Positions 11,622-18,421 of a stretch of DNA of 41,915 nucleotides are shown in pieces. Origin of the DNA: Candidatus Pacearchaeota archaeon. GTDB taxonomy: Archaea > Nanobdellota > Nanobdellia > Pacearchaeales > GW2011-AR1. Within the stretch, counting starts at the first letter, position 1, and every line of letters starts with the position of its first letter. The stretch spans positions 1-41,915 of the forward strand of contig JAGVXK010000009.1 of assembly GCA_018303825.1 (NCBI GenBank), in the 5' to 3' direction. The position numbers and the translations under genes are program-made. Under the pieces are notes generated by a model. That model saw only the letters and a program-made list of their open reading frames with translations. It ran no database searches and had not been told where the DNA came from.

Positions 11622-11690
11622 GCCTTTTTAAATATTTATTCAATAAAGAGAATATTATGCTCATGTTAAGTTTGTTCTTCAAAATAAAAA

Positions 11691-11786
11691 ATGAAATCAA
11701 GAGTAATAAAAAACAAGTTCATATTTAACAATACAATGATTATTGCACTCAGATATTGTGAAAGTTGCGAAGGTCTATATATTTGA
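11691..11786 (+). CDS. Possible 31-aa CxxC mini-protein at the distal edge of the cassette array
   Basis: ATG 11691, MKSRVIKNKFIFNNTMIIALRYCESCEGLYI*, TGA 11784-11786; below the ORF-track cutoff. Confidence 0.25.
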   Translation: MKSRVIKNKFIFNNTMIIALRYCESCEGLYI

Positions 11787-11927
11787 GCAATTTCGAGTAA
11801 TCTGCTGTTGCTTGACCGAACGAAGTGAGGCACGAGTGGAGCAAAAAGCGACCTCGTGAGTTTTAATTTTTCTTTCAGGGTAGGGGATTGGAAAACAAGA
11901 GATTTAAATTTTAGCCGAAGAAAAAAT

Positions 11928-11948
11928 TTCACCTAATTATCTTATGTT
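11928..11948 (+). repeat. Boundary site A (divergent): TTCACCTAA-TTATC-TTATGTT
   Basis: TAA-5nt-TTA dyad at the same position relative to the downstream hairpin block as site C. Confidence 0.5.
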
Positions 11949-11954
11949 CTCGGC

Positions 11955-12060
11955 TCCTCGAAACGAGCCTCGAAAAATGGAGTTTTTCAGAGGTGCGAGT
12001 TTCAGAGATGAAACAACGAGGAAAATTAATTTAATACAAACTTTAGTAGGGCGGGGGACG
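11955..12060 (+). repeat. Hairpin-rich spacer, copy 1 of an approx. 106-bp direct repeat
   Basis: Near-identical to 13170-13277; differences fall in a stem (GAAAAA/TTTTTC versus GCAAAAT/ATTTTGC) and just before the G-tract. Confidence 0.9.
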
Positions 12061-12103
12061 ACACACCGATAATTTTATAAACTCTATAGTAATAACATAA
12101 ACT

Positions 12104-12451
12104 ATGAAACTAAAATATATGGGCAGGGCTGTTGGAGTATTTGATGCAGTAGCTTGGGTTATCGCAACTTCTCTTTGTTATAAAGTCCTCTCTAATGCTA
12201 ATTATAATTTTTTTATGGAAGAACATCCGATTGAACATAAGTTAATTGGGGGAGCTTATTTGGGACTTGTTGCTGCTTTTGTTCCAATTTCTGCCATGGG
12301 AATAACTGATGGAATTGTCGATGTAGTAAAAGGAACTCACCATTATTTTGGATTAAAAGTTTGGCAGAAATTGACTAGAAATCAAGAAACAAAAGCTAAA
12401 ATTCAATCGGATTTGGAAAAACAATTAGAGAGGATTGAACAGCCCTGCTAA
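12104..12451 (+). CDS. Hypothetical membrane protein (module A cargo)
   Basis: Two hydrophobic segments; TTTATAA 12074-12080 is 24 nt before ATG. Confidence 0.7.
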   Translation: MKLKYMGRAVGVFDAVAWVIATSLCYKVLSNANYNFFMEEHPIEHKLIGGAYLGLVAAFVPISAMGITDGIVDVVKGTHHYFGLKVWQKLTRNQETKAKIQSDLEKQLERIEQPC

Positions 12452-12529
12452 TTCTTTAGGTGTGCCGTCTGGGTGGGGGTTGGAAATAGATTAAATTAAT
12501 TTTCCGAAGAGTTTTCTCAGCAGAGACAA

Positions 12530-12551
12530 TTGAGTCTAATGGCTGTTAGTT
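12530..12551 (+). repeat. Boundary site B: TTGAGTCTAA-TGGCTG-TTAGTT
   Basis: Matches sites C, D, E. Confidence 0.75.
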
Positions 12552-12663
12552 TCTCCGAGTGAAACGAGGACGAGATTTTAATGTAATGTTCCCGAAGGGA
12601 AAAATCTCGAGTTCAAAGCGCCGAGTCAAAAGATTTATAATGTTTAACAGATTATATTCTATC

Positions 12664-13140
12664 ATGCGATATGAATTTGAGGATAGGGGCGAGACGACCA
12701 TTGTTGATACAAAACAATTGGATTACGAAGCAATTTGGGATGCCTTAAGATTGAGGAATGGACAAAGAGAAGGAGCAAATAAAATTATGGATTTATACAA
12801 TTCTGCCGACTTTAATGATAGAATTCTCATAGTTACTGCATGTTCTTGGATGAAGCCAGGTAATAGAGAAGCGCAGCGACATCAAGCAGACCATTATAGA
12901 ACAAGAATTGAATTAGAAAGGACTGCGCAAGATAATGGATTAGTTAAAAAATTATTACATAATGGAATTCTTAAGCTTCATCCAAAGTGGAGACCCCACT
13001 TAATTACGAGAAAAGAAGAGGAAGGCATAATTGTAATTGGTCCAGGACATCAAAGGCATTCCCAAGCACCATATAGATTAGATGTTTGGCGACTTCATGA
13101 ATTGGAGTCGAGCCCCGAGCTTGAATACGAGGCGCTTTGA
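12664..13140 (+). CDS. Hypothetical protein (module B cargo); start probably 12664 or 12640 rather than GTG 12559
   Basis: The upstream part of ORF 12559 is hairpin/IR sequence; TTTATAA 12634-12640 lies 24 nt before ATG 12664; stop codon lies inside the right IR. Confidence 0.65.
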   Translation: MRYEFEDRGETTIVDTKQLDYEAIWDALRLRNGQREGANKIMDLYNSADFNDRILIVTACSWMKPGNREAQRHQADHYRTRIELERTAQDNGLVKKLLHNGILKLHPKWRPHLITRKEEEGIIVIGPGHQRHSQAPYRLDVWRLHELESSPELEYEAL

Positions 13141-13141
13141 A

Positions 13142-13162
13142 TTGAGCATAATTATGTTAGTT
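13142..13162 (+). repeat. Boundary site C: TTGAGCATAA-TTATG-TTAGTT
   Basis: Matches sites B, D, E. Confidence 0.8.
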
Positions 13163-13169
13163 TCCTTTT

Positions 13170-13277
13170 TCCTCGAAACGAGCCTCGCAAAATGGGACAT
13201 TTTGCAGAGGTGCGAGTTTCAGAGATGAAACAACGAGGAAAATTAATTTAATAGTTACTTTCGTAGGGCGGGGGACG
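13170..13277 (+). repeat. Hairpin-rich spacer, copy 2
   Basis: Near-identical to 11955-12060. Confidence 0.9.
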
Positions 13278-13352
13278 GAAAAAGCTTTTTGATTCTTTTT
13301 CCTAAAAAGAAGAAGTTATGGGGCACTTTTCGTTTAGTAACTTTGTTTAATA

Positions 13353-13670
13353 TTATTCCCAAAGAGATTCTCGAGCTGCATCTTCTGAAATTCCTCTAGA
13401 TATAGCTAAAGTTTTAATTTCTAAATCTCCAACATCTACACCCAATATTCCAGAAAGTAAGTGTTGACTTTTATCATCTCCAACAGCGTTTCTAAACTCT
13501 CTGATGGCTGAGCATATATTCCCTGCATAAGTACTTCTTTCACTGGGGGTATATTCGGGGTTATATGGTCTTTCCAAGTCCATATTTAATAAATTTTTAA
13601 CTATTCTTCCAGCTACATTCATTTGGAAATTATCACAGACGGTATATCTTATTTGTGTTTGTCTTGTCAT
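13353..13670 (-). CDS. Hypothetical protein (module C cargo 1)
   Basis: ORF track, 105 aa; no family recognised. Confidence 0.6.
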   Translation of the reverse strand: MTRQTQIRYTVCDNFQMNVAGRIVKNLLNMDLERPYNPEYTPSERSTYAGNICSAIREFRNAVGDDKSQHLLSGILGVDVGDLEIKTLAISRGISEDAARESLWE

Positions 13671-13793
13671 TTTGTTTTATCCTCGTAACTTTCGTTACAA
13701 TAGAGTAGTCGCAAGGTATCTTATATAGTTTATCTCCCTCTTGGTGAGGTGTAAATAGAAAGATTTATATAACTGAAAAGCTTCTCTTAAAAT

Positions 13794-14540
13794 ATGAATG
13801 AAAAATTGCTTGAAGAAATTGGTTTGACTAAAGGAGAAATTAGAGTATATTTTACCTTGTTGAAGATAGGCGAGACTACAACAGGCAAGATAATCGAAGA
13901 GGCTCAAATATCCAGTGGTAAAATATACGAAATATTAGATAAGCTCATAAAAAAAGGACTTGTTGGCTTTATTATAAAAGAAAAAACAAAATATTTTAGT
14001 CCTGCTTCTCCAAATAGAATTTTAGATTATATTCACGAAAAAGAAAAAGAGCTTAATCAAAAAGAGCAAGAACTTGTAAAAGAATTGCCTTCTCTTATAG
14101 CGATAGGAAAAGCTGAGAAAGAGAAGAAAGAAACACATTTATTCAAGGGATTTAAGGGAATACAAACAGCAATTTTTGAAGCTCTAGAAGATTTAACTTC
14201 AAAAGATGAAGTTCTTGCGATGGGTATTCGTTCATCTAAAGAAGAAAGGTTTAATCTTCTCTGGCAAAGATGGCATATAGAAAGAGTAAATAAAAAGATA
14301 GTTTGTAAAGCCATTTTTTCAGATAAAAATACAGAGTATTACAAAACTTTTAAGAAAATGAAGTTTGTAGAAGTTAGAATTTTGGAAGGAGTTACGCCTT
14401 CTGCAATTGATGTAATGAAAGATAGAGTCTTAATTTTTACTTATGGAGAAGAACCATCTTGTTTGTCTATAAAAAATCCTGAAATCGCAGAGTCATTTAA
14501 GTCTTTCTTTGAGAATTTATGGAAAGTTGCAAAGAAGTAG
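13794..14540 (+). CDS. TrmB-family transcriptional regulator (module C cargo 2)
   Basis: LEEIGLTKGEIRVYFTLLKIG...IYEILDKLIKKGLV wHTH followed by PLD-like sensor region ending FKSFFENLWK; TTTATATA 13764-13771. Confidence 0.88.
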   Translation: MNEKLLEEIGLTKGEIRVYFTLLKIGETTTGKIIEEAQISSGKIYEILDKLIKKGLVGFIIKEKTKYFSPASPNRILDYIHEKEKELNQKEQELVKELPSLIAIGKAEKEKKETHLFKGFKGIQTAIFEALEDLTSKDEVLAMGIRSSKEERFNLLWQRWHIERVNKKIVCKAIFSDKNTEYYKTFKKMKFVEVRILEGVTPSAIDVMKDRVLIFTYGEEPSCLSIKNPEIAESFKSFFENLWKVAKK

Positions 14541-14640
14541 TTTAGAAAAGTGCCCATTATAGTCATCTCTGAAAAGAATTTTCAGCTATCTTTTCGTGCT
14601 TTTTCCGTCGGGTGGGGGAGGTAATAAGCAGACTTGCGAA

Positions 14641-14661
14641 TTGAGCCTAACGATGTTAGTT
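14641..14661 (+). repeat. Boundary site D: TTGAGCCTAA-CGATG-TTAGTT
   Basis: Contains GCCTAAC and GTTAGTT, i.e. integron-like RYYYAAC and GTTRRY cores only 3 nt apart. Confidence 0.8.
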
Positions 14662-14836
14662 TCCCCTTGCCTCGCGAAGACCCCTCCAATAACGAAGTTA
14701 TTGAGAGTGGGGCTGAGCAGAGCTGCAAGGGTTCGAAGAAAACCGTAGTTTTCTGAGAAAGTATGACGGAGGCGGCGGGCGAAAGTTATTCTTAATTATA
14801 TAAATATTTATAAGTAAGAAGGTGTTGTTAATTATC

Positions 14837-15064
14837 ATGATACTTGATCAACCGGAAAATTGGGGTGGTTTGGAAAATGAATTGGTTGGCACTCCGACAC
14901 CTTCTTACGACCCACAAAAGGCTGCTGAACAATTATATCAGTTCATACAAAAACAACCTTATGAAACTGTAGCACAATTTCAGATGATGGTAAATGAAAA
15001 GCCTTTTGTGCCATATAATAGACCCGCTATAAAATGCGGCAAGGTTGTTCCAGATTCTCATTGA
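14837..15064 (+). CDS. Hypothetical small protein (module D cargo)
   Basis: TTTATAA 14807-14813 is 24 nt before ATG 14837; flanked by GGCGGCGGGC/GCCCGCCGCC. Confidence 0.6.
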   Translation: MILDQPENWGGLENELVGTPTPSYDPQKAAEQLYQFIQKQPYETVAQFQMMVNEKPFVPYNRPAIKCGKVVPDSH

Positions 15065-15082
15065 GCCCGCCGCCGAGTAATA

Positions 15083-15103
15083 TTGAAACTAATTATGTTA
15101 GTC
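15083..15103 (+). repeat. Boundary site E: TTGAAACTAA-TTATG-TTAGTC
   Basis: Matches sites B, C, D. Confidence 0.8.
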
Positions 15104-15412
15104 GACCCTATCGAGATGAGCATCCTCGAAAAAATGGAGTTTTTTCAGAGCTGATGTGAATACTCCTGATAGGGCAAGAAAACAAAGAATATTGTTTTCG
15201 CAGAGTAAAAATCACTTTTCAGGGTGGGCATCGTATTAGAGAAGGCACTAGTTTCGTTTCATGGGGGGCTGAGTATCTAAGTTTTGCTTCTTTTTCTAAA
15301 AGAAGTTTTTAGTTAATTACCAAAGTTTTTTTGATTTTCTTCTTCGACCATCGCTAAACAAAGCTTTTCTTGCTTGTCCTTTTGAAGTTTTTGGTCCTGT
15401 TTTCTTTACCAT

Positions 15413-16897
15413 CTAAGATTTTACCCCCTTTTCAACTATTCCATTTTTATCACAAACCCAATAACCATTTTCTACTAACGAAGGAGAATTACTTATACTT
15501 CCTTGTAAAATGTAGATTGGAAATTCTGAATTATCTAAATACCATTCCGTAAAGAATTTCGCTCGATTACGATTAATCTCTATTTCTTCTGGAAATAAAT
15601 CATAAATCCAATTTTTTGCATCGTTATAATTATCAAAGTATTCAGAACGATATAACTTAGAACTTTGTGATGCTTCATTAAATTTTGTTTTACAAAAATC
15701 TAAAAAATCTTGATTGGATTGAATAACAACATTAGAATTTTCTGAACCATTTGTTACATTATTAATCTTCTTTTGATTTTCTTGTGGATTATTAAAAAGC
15801 AAAAAAACAGCAAAGATTAGTAATAATGAGATAATAAAAATTGAGGAGATTTTAAAAATTTTAAAGAATCTTTTCTTTTTCTCTAAAGACCTGGCTTTTT
15901 TTAATTCATATTCAAAACTTTTTCTTTCGGCGTTAGCAAATCCTTTTTTGCTTACACCCATACTTCTTACCTTTCCCCTAAGTTTCTCGTAATCCTCTTT
16001 AGATATTTTTCCATTGTCTCTTAATTCTTCTAAATCATCGATTTTCGTATCTCCCCATTTTTCATCTTCTAAATTTTCTTCTTGTTTTTCGATAAAAGTT
16101 TTTATTTTTTCAATATCAATAATTTTCCCAGATTTTCTAGATAAATCAATGTCGTTCCTAATTTTATCTAATATCAAATACCTCTTGTTAAAATCTAAGT
16201 CTAATTTCTTAACCATAGAAAATAATTCTTCTAATTCTATGTCCTCTACTCTACTTTCAGCTTGTTCATCTACTTCTCTTTCTTTCTCAAGAAGAATCTC
16301 GTTTTCAATTTTTTTAAGCTGAATTTCTCGTTTAGTATAATCTGAAAATTCTAATTTTTCTAATTGCTCAAAAATTGACCTTTTCTTATTTTTATCCTCA
16401 ATTTTTTCAATTTTGTCATAAAGAGAAGTTAATTTCTGTTCTTCTTCATCTTTTACCCTTTTTAGAACTTCTTTAATCTCGAGATTTTTCCCAACTTCTT
16501 CATATAAATCGACTAAATCTAATCTCTGGAGTTTTCTCCAATAATCTTCATTCCATAAGCATATTCCCTTTTTCTTTAAATTCATTATATATTCATCAGA
16601 TAAATTTTTATGCCCGGTTATAGCTAAGATAAGTTTATCTGCTTCTAAAGATTTTCCGTCTTCAACTAAATCTTCTATTACTTCTTCTATGTTTTCAAAA
16701 GGAAATTTTGCATAATCTTTACATTGAATTAAAATCTTTAGATTGCCTTTTATTGCTAAAACATCTTGTTCTGATTTTCGTCCATCTTCCTTTCTTGTAA
16801 AAATATGATTCCTTACAATAAAACCAATTCTTTGAAATAAGTCAAACATTTCTCTTTCAAATTTATCCCCCATCCTATCTCTGTTTTCGTCTTTCAT
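15413..16897 (-). CDS. PD-(D/E)XK (Mrr-like) restriction-endonuclease domain + coiled coil + TM protein (module E cargo)
   Basis: GDKFEREM...EQDVLA...LIQCKDY nuclease motif; long charged helical region; TM IFKISSIFIISLLLIFAVFLLF. Confidence 0.72.
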   Translation of the reverse strand: MKDENRDRMGDKFEREMFDLFQRIGFIVRNHIFTRKEDGRKSEQDVLAIKGNLKILIQCKDYAKFPFENIEEVIEDLVEDGKSLEADKLILAITGHKNLSDEYIMNLKKKGICLWNEDYWRKLQRLDLVDLYEEVGKNLEIKEVLKRVKDEEEQKLTSLYDKIEKIEDKNKKRSIFEQLEKLEFSDYTKREIQLKKIENEILLEKEREVDEQAESRVEDIELEELFSMVKKLDLDFNKRYLILDKIRNDIDLSRKSGKIIDIEKIKTFIEKQEENLEDEKWGDTKIDDLEELRDNGKISKEDYEKLRGKVRSMGVSKKGFANAERKSFEYELKKARSLEKKKRFFKIFKISSIFIISLLLIFAVFLLFNNPQENQKKINNVTNGSENSNVVIQSNQDFLDFCKTKFNEASQSSKLYRSEYFDNYNDAKNWIYDLFPEEIEINRNRAKFFTEWYLDNSEFPIYILQGSISNSPSLVENGYWVCDKNGIVEKGVKS

Positions 16898-16898
16898 C

Positions 16899-17120
16899 TT
16901 ATTTGTTATCTCCTTCTATCTTTATATTCTCTAGGTTTCCACATTTCCTACATAATAATTTTTTATCTTTTCTTCTAATATAGACAAATGAAGAACCGCA
17001 TTTTGAACACCTAAATCCGGTTTCATCTTCTCTAACATATTTTTTTAGAAGTTTGTTTAAATTAAAAACTTCTTCATTTATTTTACTCATTCTCTCTAAA
17101 ATTTCTTTACTTATATCCAT
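16899..17120 (-). CDS. Small zinc-ribbon protein (module E cargo)
   Basis: CSKCGS...CRKCG; likely start MDISKE at 17120 (ORF track GTG 17144 is too close to the TATA box at 17149-17158). Confidence 0.7.
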   Translation of the reverse strand: MDISKEILERMSKINEEVFNLNKLLKKYVREDETGFRCSKCGSSFVYIRRKDKKLLCRKCGNLENIKIEGDNK

Positions 17121-17320
17121 TTTGTGTGTAATGTTCACACTCACACATTATTTATAAACCTTTGGGTGTTGTATTAGTTATTCGAAGTCAGCCCCCTTCG
17201 TAATAAAATCGAGCAAACGGAAGTTTGCGAGCAAAATGTGGCGAAGCCACTAATAAAATAGTTCAGCCCCCCGTTCGTGTGCCTTCTCCTATTGGGTGGG
17301 AAAGAAAAGGGATTTTTATT

Positions 17321-17340
17321 TTGGCTAATGGTCTTTATAC
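17321..17340 (+). repeat. Boundary site F (array end): TTGGCTAA-TGGTC-TTTATAC
   Basis: Follows module E outer stem directly; left arm can pair with the right arm of site E over 9 nt (3 G.T). Confidence 0.5.
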
Positions 17341-17581
17341 GAAAAGGGGCTTATATGGGTGTAATAAGGGCTAAAAAGAGTGTTTTTGAATGACGACCTT
17401 GGAAATTATAGGAACTAGTGTCAAGAGGAAAAGGATTAATGATGTTGGCTAATTGGTAAAAGTTGATAATCATTATTGGTAAGTTGTTCATTAGAGAGGT
17501 TATTAATTGAACTTTATATAATTGTGTTTTAATTGTTGAATTACAAAATATATATTTAAATGTATATTTTATAGTATATAG

Positions 17582-18421
17582 ATGAGCTATTATCCTATTG
17601 ACATTGAAAGAGCTATAAAAAGAGAGTGCGAGAGGAGAAGATACAGCCCGAGGACTGCTAGAACTTATATCCATTGTGTTAATAAATTCCTTACTCTTTC
17701 TGGAAAAACGCTCGATAAGATAAGCAAGGGAGATGCCAGCGAGTTTTTGCATCATTTAAGTGAAAGGGGAAAATCTGGGAGCACAATTAATGTTTATCAT
17801 ATGGCTATAAGATTTCTTTTTATGGATATTCTTAGGAAGAATATAAGATTAGATATAAAATATTCAAAAGTGCCTTTGAAGCTGCCAGAGATTTTGACAA
17901 AGGAAGAAACTAGAAAGCTGATTAATGCTATTAGCAATGAAAAACATAGGCTGATGGTTGGATTTATGTATTCTGCTGGATTAAGGGTTTCTGAAATGCT
18001 TGATATGAAAGTTTGTGATATTGATTTTAAAAATAATTATGGCTTCGTTAGGAATGGCAAGGGGGGAAAGGACAGAATATTTGTTTTATCTCAAAAGATA
18101 AAACCTGAGATAAAAGAGATAATTGCCAAAGAAAAATTGAGTTCTGGGGATTTAATCTTTAGGAACAGGAATGGCAAGAAATATTCTACAAGAAGCATAC
18201 AGAAGATAGTCAAAAGAGCTGCCATGATTGCAGAGATTAATAAAAAAGTTCATCCGCATACTCTCCGGCATTCGTTTGCCACTCATTTGATTGAAAACGA
18301 CTATTCTATTAATGAAGTTCAGACCCTGCTTGGACATAAAAGTCTTGAAACAACAATGATTTATGTGCATCTCGCTGCTCCGAATATATTAAAAATAAAG
18401 AGCCCAATTGATAATTTATAA
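17582..18421 (+). CDS. Tyrosine recombinase, IntI-like/XerD-like, without integron I2 insertion
   Basis: N-terminal RRYSPRTARTY SAM-like domain; GLRVSE (R), GKGGKDR (K), HTLRHSFA (HxxR), LLGH, TMIY (Y); C-terminal KSPID. Confidence 0.95.
   Translation: MSYYPIDIERAIKRECERRRYSPRTARTYIHCVNKFLTLSGKTLDKISKGDASEFLHHLSERGKSGSTINVYHMAIRFLFMDILRKNIRLDIKYSKVPLKLPEILTKEETRKLINAISNEKHRLMVGFMYSAGLRVSEMLDMKVCDIDFKNNYGFVRNGKGGKDRIFVLSQKIKPEIKEIIAKEKLSSGDLIFRNRNGKKYSTRSIQKIVKRAAMIAEINKKVHPHTLRHSFATHLIENDYSINEVQTLLGHKSLETTMIYVHLAAPNILKIKSPIDNL

Follow-up and report, generated by a model that had tools for sequence, protein, structure and literature searches.

To our knowledge, the capture of single genes through folded DNA sites is well understood for one platform only, that of integrons. 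Integrons are recognised by an IntI-specific I2 domain around patch III of the integrase and by attC sites, which are R''-L''...L'-R' hairpins of about 50-150 nucleotides (nt) where the crossover takes place in R', at the base of the stem. The origin of integrons from Xer-like enzymes is an open question. Here, we describe an array of six gene cassettes, or modules, located directly upstream of a tyrosine recombinase gene in Candidatus Pacearchaeota archaeon, a groundwater archaeon with a genome of 806 kb (34.5% G+C, 23 contigs; assembly GCA_018303825.1). Judged by its relatives, this DPANN archaeon is of the Woesearchaeota/Nanoarchaeota type. The stretch of DNA analysed, hereafter the window, corresponds to positions 1 to 41,915 of contig JAGVXK010000009.1 (C5 here; 41,915 nt, forward strand), and coordinates refer to it unless another contig or locus is named. 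At this locus the two ends of each module pair with one another and the fold encloses the cargo. This architecture is real, conserved and widespread in DPANN archaea. On balance, it probably represents a sedentary, integron-analogous cassette array made from Xer/dif-type parts, in which a palindromic site would be cut at its tip on insertion, leaving its halves on either side of the gene.

Blackwell and Hall reportedly described, in 2017, pdif modules of Acinetobacter, where accessory genes are divided by repeated 28-bp Xer-type sites. In some archaea, xerA and dif are reported to be linked in a module, integrative mobile elements exploiting Xer (IMEX) form tandem arrays at dif, and the attP used by CTXphi is a single-stranded fold of about 150 nt (PMC5357621). 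Nanoarchaeota and other phyla have been found to contain canonical attC arrays, most of which lack an integrase, and the archaeal attC sites presented in the part of that article consulted are canonical R''...R' hairpins of 70-90 nt (Ghaly et al. 2022, PMC9668308). None of the contigs listed in that part overlaps the loci studied here. Searches of the literature on archaeal integrons, XerA/dif, DPANN recombinases and archaeal tyrosine recombinases returned no description of the layout reported below, in agreement with a preliminary description of the window, made from its letters and open reading frames (ORFs) alone, which knew of none either.

Six modules in tandem upstream of an array-linked recombinase

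The array occupies positions 11798-17343 and is directly followed by the recombinase gene. Its elements are as follows.

11790..11811, plus strand: distal array boundary, with a chromosomal left half-site (ATTTCGAGTAA-T), a 5-nt spacer and the start of module 0
11807..11937, plus strand: module 0, gene-less, 131 nt, behind junction 11790-11811
11941..12540, plus strand: module A, with a degenerate 5′ arm (CTTAT start), a branched hairpin block, G-tract and clamp, cargo, clamp and G-tract, and a 3′ arm ending in TAAT
near 12058-12067 / 12459-12468: clamp pair of module A
12545..13152, plus strand: module B, whose right clamp overlaps the stop codon of the cargo
13156..14651, plus strand: module C, left arm about 94% identical to that of module A
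14655..15093, plus strand: module D, with a 10-nt GC clamp pair at 14771-14780 / 15064-15073
15097..17329, plus strand: module E, with a second inverted-repeat pair near 15267-15276 / 17263-17272
17582..18421, plus strand: array-linked tyrosine recombinase, 279 residues, XerA/IntI-like, without I2 insertion (Pfam PF00589 and PF13495, a SAM_4 N-domain)

The preliminary description had pointed to five modules, A to E, sharing one grammar (GTTAG arm, hairpins, clamps around the gene, YTAAY arm). On reading the sequence, this grammar was found at the places where it had been reported: modules B, C, D and E start with GTTAG, end with TAAY and are separated by spacers of 3-4 nt. The number and limits of the modules had to be changed, however. 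There are six modules with refined boundaries, the start of module A is degenerate, and the gene-less module 0 had been overlooked. The right arm of the latter (11880-11937) is homologous to the right arm of module A (12470-12540), and 7/9 positions of its termini are paired. Gene-less modules are also present at other loci (L030, L046, L051 and L084). Modules A and C have in common a branched-hairpin left arm of about 130 nt, as a direct repeat, while their cargo is different.

The module's own start and own end were compared over 9 nt. The pairing reported earlier for module D (9/9 with one G.T) and module E (9/9 with three G.T) was reproduced; the values are 8/9 for module C and 7/9 for each of modules A and B. 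Inside the termini, every module carries exact inverted repeats that are mostly rare in shuffled sequences, as the earlier reading required. The longest is the 16-nt repeat of module A (12020-12035 / 12490-12505), equalled in 0/500 shuffles. Modules C (13217-13228 / 14563-14574) and D each have a repeat of 12 nt, a length reached in 1/500 shuffles in both cases, and module C has in addition an 11-nt clamp pair. The 10-nt repeats of modules B (12613-12622 / 13131-13140) and E (15239-15248 / 17279-17288) were equalled in 14/500 and 19/500 shuffles, respectively. Further nested inverted-repeat blocks occur in each module.

The two ends of a module covary and the fold encloses the cargo

A wider set of loci was obtained by scanning one genome per species with an alignment of recombinase orthologues. 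This gave 80 loci, whereas a scan of public genomes using the array recombinase as a single protein gave no match. From DPANN genomes, 65 modules were delimited at 28 loci; these provided 57 distinct end pairs, all from genomes other than that of the window.

Variable end positions 5-9 were all paired in 32 of the 57 unique modules (56%), as compared to 5.4% of non-cognate pairs, and the sum of own-end pairs was reached by none of 50,000 permutations. Over positions 5-12, the number of pairs (of 8) was 4.71 with the module's own end, 3.56 with the end of the previous module and 3.22 with a random end; the end of a neighbouring module pairs no better than a random one. The pairs themselves are of several kinds: T-A (20), G-C (13) and A-T (10) at position 5; A-T (18), G-C (13) and T-A (9) at position 6; T-A (20) and G-C (19) at position 8. 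Positions 5 and 6 thus each accommodate three kinds of Watson-Crick pair, and positions 7-9 two or three. Such variety at each position is what covariation for base pairing produces, and not what a consensus for protein binding would give. Because the two ends of each module covary as base pairs, the fold encloses the cargo. This was the central proposal of the preliminary description, which had contrasted it with attC, where the fold lies beside the gene.

Inner parts of the arms behave in the same way. An exact inverted repeat of at least 10 nt was found in 71% of cognate arm pairs and in 10.7% of non-cognate ones. When the arms of 58 modules were joined by a linker and folded with DNA parameters, a kind of fold already recommended in the earlier reading, cognate arms gave -41.7 kcal/mol and chimeric arms -30.5 kcal/mol, the cognate fold being the lower in 50/58 cases (p = 1e-8). 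RNAduplex applied to the long arms separated cognate from foreign partners poorly (-58 vs -50); exact-repeat and linker-fold statistics were therefore used in its place.

The fold energies also distinguish the two strands. The plus strand, which is the recombinase-sense strand, folds better in 47/58 modules (p = 2e-8). Judged from the longest ORF, plus-strand cargo (28 modules) is about as common as minus-strand cargo (29 modules), and another eight modules carry no gene. At end position 1, G.T pairs were observed in 31/57 modules.

Dif-like junctions, docking site and crossover point

Between the last module and the recombinase gene, two elements were delimited.

17319..17343, plus strand: recombinase-proximal core (attI-like docking site), comprising the left arm of the last cassette, a 4-nt spacer and the fixed right arm TTTATACGAA
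17344..17581, plus strand: platform, from the core to the recombinase start, with a variable hairpin region and a second conserved box at about 17385-17415 (alignment of 25 loci)

The left arm of the junctions matches the dif arm of Pyrococcus abyssi, as given in the methods of PMC2958812, at 10/11 positions, and an 11-6-11 layout fits. The junction sites are therefore dif-like, a character that had escaped the preliminary description. Across loci, the docking core reads ATTGAAYATAA-C-AGRC-T-TTTAACGAA or a clade-specific variant of it, and in at least 44 loci it precedes the recombinase gene by about 110-260 nt. On its array side follow between one and eight junctions, in which ATTGnnnnTAAY is separated from GTTAnnnnnCCCGA by a spacer of 3-4 nt. 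The left arm of the distal boundary in the window has the same form as junction left arms in other loci. The window array has seven directly repeated sites with unlike right arms; the two arms of the docking core agree at 6/11 positions, as counted by hand. At every array read, all junctions have one orientation, and in each junction 3-4 nt separate the AAC-type motif from the GTT-type motif. No other copy of the junction motif was found in the 806-kb genome, and a search of this AT-rich genome for a second, more symmetric dif gave weak candidates only.

The second conserved box lies 60-90 nt beyond the docking core across loci. Its consensus, approximately GAATTTGAnTAAyGACTCnnGAAATTTT, repeats the TAACGA of the core right arm. 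In several loci the platform hairpin corresponds to an inverted copy of the same right arm. By analogy with the DR1/DR2 repeats of attI1, the hairpin and the box could be accessory binding sites; alternatively, they could be the recombinase promoter.

The composition of the junctions bears on the crossover point. Internal junctions carry TAAT (54) or TAAC (24) and pyrimidine-rich spacers, whereas recombinase-proximal junctions carry TAAC in 31/36 cases and AGRC spacers. This difference implies that the spacer and the base following TAA remain attached to the downstream half-site, which fits an exchange at TAA^Y, the border between Xer arm and spacer. Cleavage at G^TT, as proposed in the preliminary description, fits less well and is probably wrong. 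From this asymmetry, the crossover point is more likely TAA^Y, which would be the equivalent of AA^C on the attC bottom strand. Within a single array, the junction centres differ both in sequence and in length (3 vs 4 nt).

The array-linked recombinases form a clade of their own

The array recombinase scored 220.2 bits with the NCBIfam XerA model NF040815, for a cut-off of 220, and 197.6 bits, in two separate stretches, with the IntI model TIGR02249, below the cut-off of 265. Compared with known structures, it gave 141.8 bits with IntI4 (PDB 2a3v) and 135.5 bits with P. abyssi XerA (4a8e). Residues 200-245 of 2a3v, about 45 positions forming the I2 region, have no counterpart in it. The TIGR02249 and IntI4 alignments thus bear out the earlier view of a cassette-like array tied to recombinases without I2. 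The invariant columns of the catalytic region are all kept in the array recombinase across orthologues. A second XerA-type gene of the same genome, on contig C4, reached 269.3 bits on the XerA model; its product is 45% identical to the array recombinase and no array lies beside it. Taken with the tree described below, these comparisons identify the array recombinase as a XerA/IntI-like paralogue that lacks I2 and belongs to a different clade from housekeeping XerA.

Orthologues with 53-60% identity were found in 5/60 related genomes, most of the others having only a XerA-type protein. Modules of the same kind lie upstream of the orthologous gene in three of these relatives: one module with the same grammar in G029, two in G007 and two in G020, one of the latter having a 20-nt terminal inverted repeat with nested repeats. 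The 80 loci come from Woese-, Pace-, Nano- and Aenigmatarchaeota and from two bacteria of the candidate phyla radiation (CPR), and dozens of them have the conserved core. In a quick maximum-likelihood tree, the array-linked clade (77 rows, 44 with a recognised site) was split from the housekeeping branch with 99% support. On the housekeeping branch were 14 rows of archaeal XerA, all lacking a docking site; the two CPR rows, in which a docking-like motif is present, joined this branch. The right-arm class of the docking site follows the recombinase tree. Overall, the grammar accompanies the array recombinases and not housekeeping XerA, which is the co-occurrence that had been predicted.

Searching metagenomes for the site first, we obtained 36 contigs with one site each. 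Enough downstream sequence was available for 28 of them, and 16 of these have a recombinase immediately downstream.

The two CPR loci deserve a separate mention. In L105 (2233-5570, Uhrbacteria) and L107 (1368-1400, Gracilibacteria), sites of the ATTKCRYATAAC type precede an Xer-like gene with 39-40% identity. In L105, the site occurs four times as a direct repeat within 3.4 kb, with right arms ending TATRCGAA-like. At about 25/80 loci (within L028-L107), the contig stops on the array side with less than 1 kb of sequence before the recombinase gene. Assemblies typically break in this way at repeated or strain-variable DNA, but these ends are no more than suggestive, since the short metagenome contigs are broken on both sides.

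Cassette turnover between genomes

The arrays differ between relatives; a fixed gene order was the counter-case set by the earlier reading. Among 134 cargo ORFs in 65 modules, only 9 blastp matches (8 ORF pairs) between modules were found. Cargo turnover between species is near-total. Arm families nevertheless recur with unrelated cargo: the arms of L052 and L080, for instance, are 91% identical around different centres. In 2/7 related pairs (L086/L087 and L035/L068), homology begins at the docking core and runs through the recombinase gene, and in L086/L087 it continues into the downstream genes.

The most precise difference was seen between L084 and L092, where a 254-nt gene-less module is inserted exactly between a shared neighbouring module and the platform. 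Together with the spacer pattern described above, this one-module difference suggests that new cassettes enter at the docking site. The shared neighbour (L084:3927-4402 vs L092:1-221) is a gene-less module of 315 nt, 98% identical between metagenome-assembled genomes from different studies, whereas the recombinase regions of the two loci are only 81% identical. The contrast hints at a recent cassette exchange between diverged genomes, unless the arm family is simply very well conserved.

Depth over the left-arm repeat blocks climbs to 20-35 times that of the genome in the source metagenomes, the rise beginning at the boundary 11790..11811, and hundreds of loose ends occur at the arm borders. 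In four public groundwater or soil runs, blocks 11753-12003, 12506-12756 and 15016-15266 were covered about 80-630x, as compared to about 7-19x for the genome. Most metagenome copies have G, not A, at base 11845. The depth of the arm blocks and this variant indicate that the arm repeats are common to many cassettes or organisms of the community. Neither a relative of the recombinase nor a match to the docking site was found in viral contigs; there is thus no sign of a viral carrier, and no carrier plasmid came to light either. A metagenome scan with the lineage-specific platform sequence gave no match. A backward joint from 12485 to 11897 was considered as an excision product and rejected, being explained by the homology between the right arms of modules 0 and A.

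Comparison with known systems and proposed mechanism

The array resembles integrons in several respects. A tyrosine recombinase adjoins a fixed docking site, from which the array extends away from the 5′ end of the recombinase gene. The recombinase-sense strand bears an ...AA^C motif, as does the bottom strand of attC, and the first bases of a cassette are complementary to the motif at its own far end. Cargo is very diverse and mostly of unknown function, empty cassettes occur, and the array protein scores as well against IntI4 as against XerA. In contrast to integrons, the enzyme has no I2, the AAC and GTT motifs are 3-4 nt apart with neither an L box nor a variable terminal structure between them, pairing proceeds outward and encloses the cargo, and the crossover would be at the tip of the hairpin and not at its base. 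Cassettes are not co-oriented either, cargo orientation being random. The array is therefore integron-like in its working and yet set apart by the lack of I2, of attC and of a common cassette orientation. Because cutting at the stem base leaves attC intact, whereas here the site would be cut at its tip, the expression 'inside-out attC' used in the preliminary description remains apt.

With IMEX and CTXphi, the array has in common dif-like sites with one well-conserved arm and tandem arrays at the target; a further likeness, which we propose for the array, is a single-stranded fold whose centre is non-homologous and which is resolved following a single strand exchange. However, IMEX are phages or islands that bring their own genes and depend on the housekeeping XerCD of the host, acting at the chromosomal dif, whereas the array has a separate paralogue beside its site, single-gene or gene-less cassettes, and a fold that spans the whole unit. 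The modules carry no recombinase genes, and the dedicated paralogue flanks the site. Accessory-gene modules split by Xer-type sites also recall pdif modules, but pdif sites alternate (C/D then D/C), are on plasmids and have no linked recombinase gene, while those of the array are chromosomal direct repeats next to a dedicated recombinase, with paired arms specific to each cassette. Finally, the 11-6-11 layout, the left arm (10/11) and a protein that barely reaches the NCBIfam XerA cut-off are shared with the archaeal XerA/dif system (PMC2958812). That system differs in that a single near-symmetric 28-bp dif is expected, whereas the array site is present in five or more copies, is asymmetric and is adjacent to the gene; in addition, the genome has a second, better-scoring XerA and the array paralogue clade is patchy among relatives. 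On these features, the array would be neither a housekeeping Xer/dif system nor a set of pdif modules.

From these features, a mechanism can be proposed. The dedicated XerA/IntI-like paralogue without I2, adjoining the conserved dif-like docking site, would be the catalyst. Each cassette would carry one long imperfect palindrome around a dif-like core, with an 11-nt left arm ending in TAA, a 5-6-nt centre and a right arm starting with TTA. In the circular cassette, the pairings seen in the array would build a single long, imperfect hairpin, with the core spacer, where crossover would take place, at its tip; the preliminary description had missed this role of the tip. On insertion at the docking site, strands would be exchanged at TAA^Y or beside it, where the palindrome has its tip; each half of the palindrome would thereby become one terminal inverted repeat of the cassette, with the cargo between the two. 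The entry point of new cassettes would lie beside the recombinase gene.

The reactive form would be folded single-stranded, or extruded, DNA undergoing one pair of strand exchanges, because the paired positions vary freely and yet stay complementary, and because neighbouring centres differ. Two-step exchange by tyrosine recombinases such as Cre, lambda Int and XerCD requires identical overlap regions. Centres that differ in sequence and length disfavour such a duplex reaction and favour a single-exchange route of the attC/CTXphi type. We consider this single-strand, tip-cut mechanism plausible.

Alternative explanations

Several observations weigh against the proposed cassette array. No circle junction linking a module's end to its own start, such as the earlier reading had called for, and no clean deletion joint were found among the assembled contigs of the public metagenome runs examined. 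Joints skipping module B (12535 to 13154) and module D (14674 to 15127) have extra or replaced letters and short sides; they were rejected as excision products and may come from arrays of other organisms. Own-end pairing is weaker in three modules of the window, A, B and C (7-8/9). Junctions missed in delimiting are probably present in several 'modules' of more than 4 kb (mixed bins). Outside position 1, G.T and A.C pairs number 20 and 14, respectively, a weak wobble asymmetry, so that the strand preference rests mainly on fold energies, which are sensitive to base composition. The association of site and enzyme is also incomplete. In the array-linked clade, 28 rows have no site matching the search patterns, and 12/28 metagenome contigs (L108, L109, L112, L117, L119, L120, L122, L132, L134, L135, L141 and L143) carry a complete platform without a recombinase gene in the stretch examined. 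In one of them, L120, an apparent truncated, decayed recombinase start is followed by a stop codon. The link between site and recombinase is strong yet not obligatory, as with the clusters of attC sites lacking integrases (CALINs) of integrons.

Platforms without the paralogue would be accounted for if another Xer acted in trans, as it might if the modules were IMEX-type hitch-hikers: independent elements with a dif-like attP, inserted in tandem at a linked xer/dif module by any XerA and with no dedicated platform. The dif-like character of junctions and docking site, the linked xerA-dif modules reported in some archaea, the tandem IMEX at dif and the folded attP of CTXphi (PMC5357621) all agree with this. 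Nevertheless, we find it rather unlikely, since the array enzyme belongs to a separate, patchy clade (orthologues of at least 53% identity in 5/60 relatives, a XerA-type match in most), the docking-site class co-varies with that clade, and the modules have no replication or transfer genes, many of them being gene-less. More improbable still is ordinary double-strand recombination between the direct dif-like repeats, with inverted repeats serving for insulation, termination or protein binding, or being a relic of cassette origin. Direct core repeats are generally sufficient for excision by a tyrosine recombinase, and the lack of the I2 insertion would be in keeping with such a reaction. However, the paired positions show no preferred sequence and are complementary from the first base of the core outwards, the unlike junction centres within an array should block two-step exchange, and one strand folds better irrespective of how the cargo is oriented.

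The better folding of the plus strand and the tolerance of G.T (G.U) at position 1 in 31/57 modules could also mean that pairing operates in RNA, the plus-strand transcript of a module folding end to end for processing, circularisation or stability. We give this very little credence: the favoured strand is constant while cargo lies on either strand, the recombination core is precisely where pairing begins, eight modules are devoid of genes, and Rfam at gathering thresholds finds two tRNAs and nothing else in the whole window. It is just as hard to believe that the region is a fossil, once mobile or merely repetitive and now fixed, with sites and enzyme deprived of present function. The lack of circles or joints among assembled contigs, the degenerate arms (start of module A; pairing of 7-8/9 in modules B and C) and the decayed recombinase start of L120 would all be expected in that case, but the recombinase keeps all invariant catalytic-region columns across orthologues, the pairing is maintained by compensatory change, a precise one-module difference separates L084 and L092 despite a 98%-identical neighbouring module, and cargo turnover between species is near-total. 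These features point to an array that would still be active at present.

If the integron-analogous reading holds, the array would be a second solution to gene capture, with a dif-type core, widespread in DPANN archaea. Genomes in this group measure about 0.5-1 Mb and have few other visible routes to accessory genes, of which the array is a possible source; the arrays would point to a mobile gene pool of uncultured episymbionts. The system would also show whether the I2 domain is truly needed for structure-specific recombination, and a small recombinase with short, portable sites is a possible laboratory tool. More tentatively, the array-linked clade might be a living intermediate between Xer and integrons, I2-less, acting on folded single-stranded sites by a single exchange, with the hairpin cut at its tip. 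We see this as a possibility with the odds against it. Were it true, structure-specific cassette capture would have arisen, perhaps independently, in DPANN archaea from a xer/dif module.

Cargo, G-tracts and neighbouring features

The modules of the window carry the following ORFs.

12104-12451, plus strand: cargo of module A, 115 residues, no Pfam family
ending at 13140, plus strand: cargo of module B, up to 193 residues, no match in Pfam and NCBIfam
13353-13670, minus strand: first cargo of module C, 105 residues
13794-14540, plus strand: second cargo of module C, TrmB-family regulator (E = 1.7e-15)
14822-15064, plus strand: cargo of module D, 80 residues, no family
15413-16897, minus strand: first cargo of module E, 494 residues, with weak, below-cutoff Pfam matches to Mrr_cat (Mrr-type restriction-endonuclease N-domain) and SHOCT
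16899-17144, minus strand: second cargo of module E, zinc ribbon of 81 residues

From these matches, the cargo of modules E and C may be defence or regulatory. A homologue of the TrmB-family regulator, 30% identical, lies inside a cassette of L071. Directly downstream of the recombinase gene is a gene for archaeal-type EF-1 alpha, identified by reading the sequence.

Modules A, C and E have plus-strand G-tracts (GGGYGGGGG or GGGTGGG) on either side of their cargo, immediately outside the innermost clamp.

12049-12057 and 12471-12479, plus strand: G-tracts of module A
13266-13274 and 14610-14618, plus strand: G-tracts of module C
15225-15231 and 17295-17301, plus strand: G-tracts of module E

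In the fold, the two tracts of a module would face one another. A split G-quadruplex was considered as an element of the grammar and rejected: across loci, GGG-N0-3-GGG is present in both arms of 7/58 modules, the C-rich equivalent in none, and the tracts are therefore a feature of a subset.

On contig C3 of the same genome, a tRNA-like gene with a long insert (C3:7820-7975) has about 16 nt of its 3′ end repeated some 1.7 kb downstream, at C3:9645-9662. The two copies bracket a region with a membrane-protein-like ORF, and the arrangement resembles that of a small element inserted into the 3′ end of a tRNA gene. Twelve nucleotides of this repeat recur in the right G-tract of module A (12469-12480).

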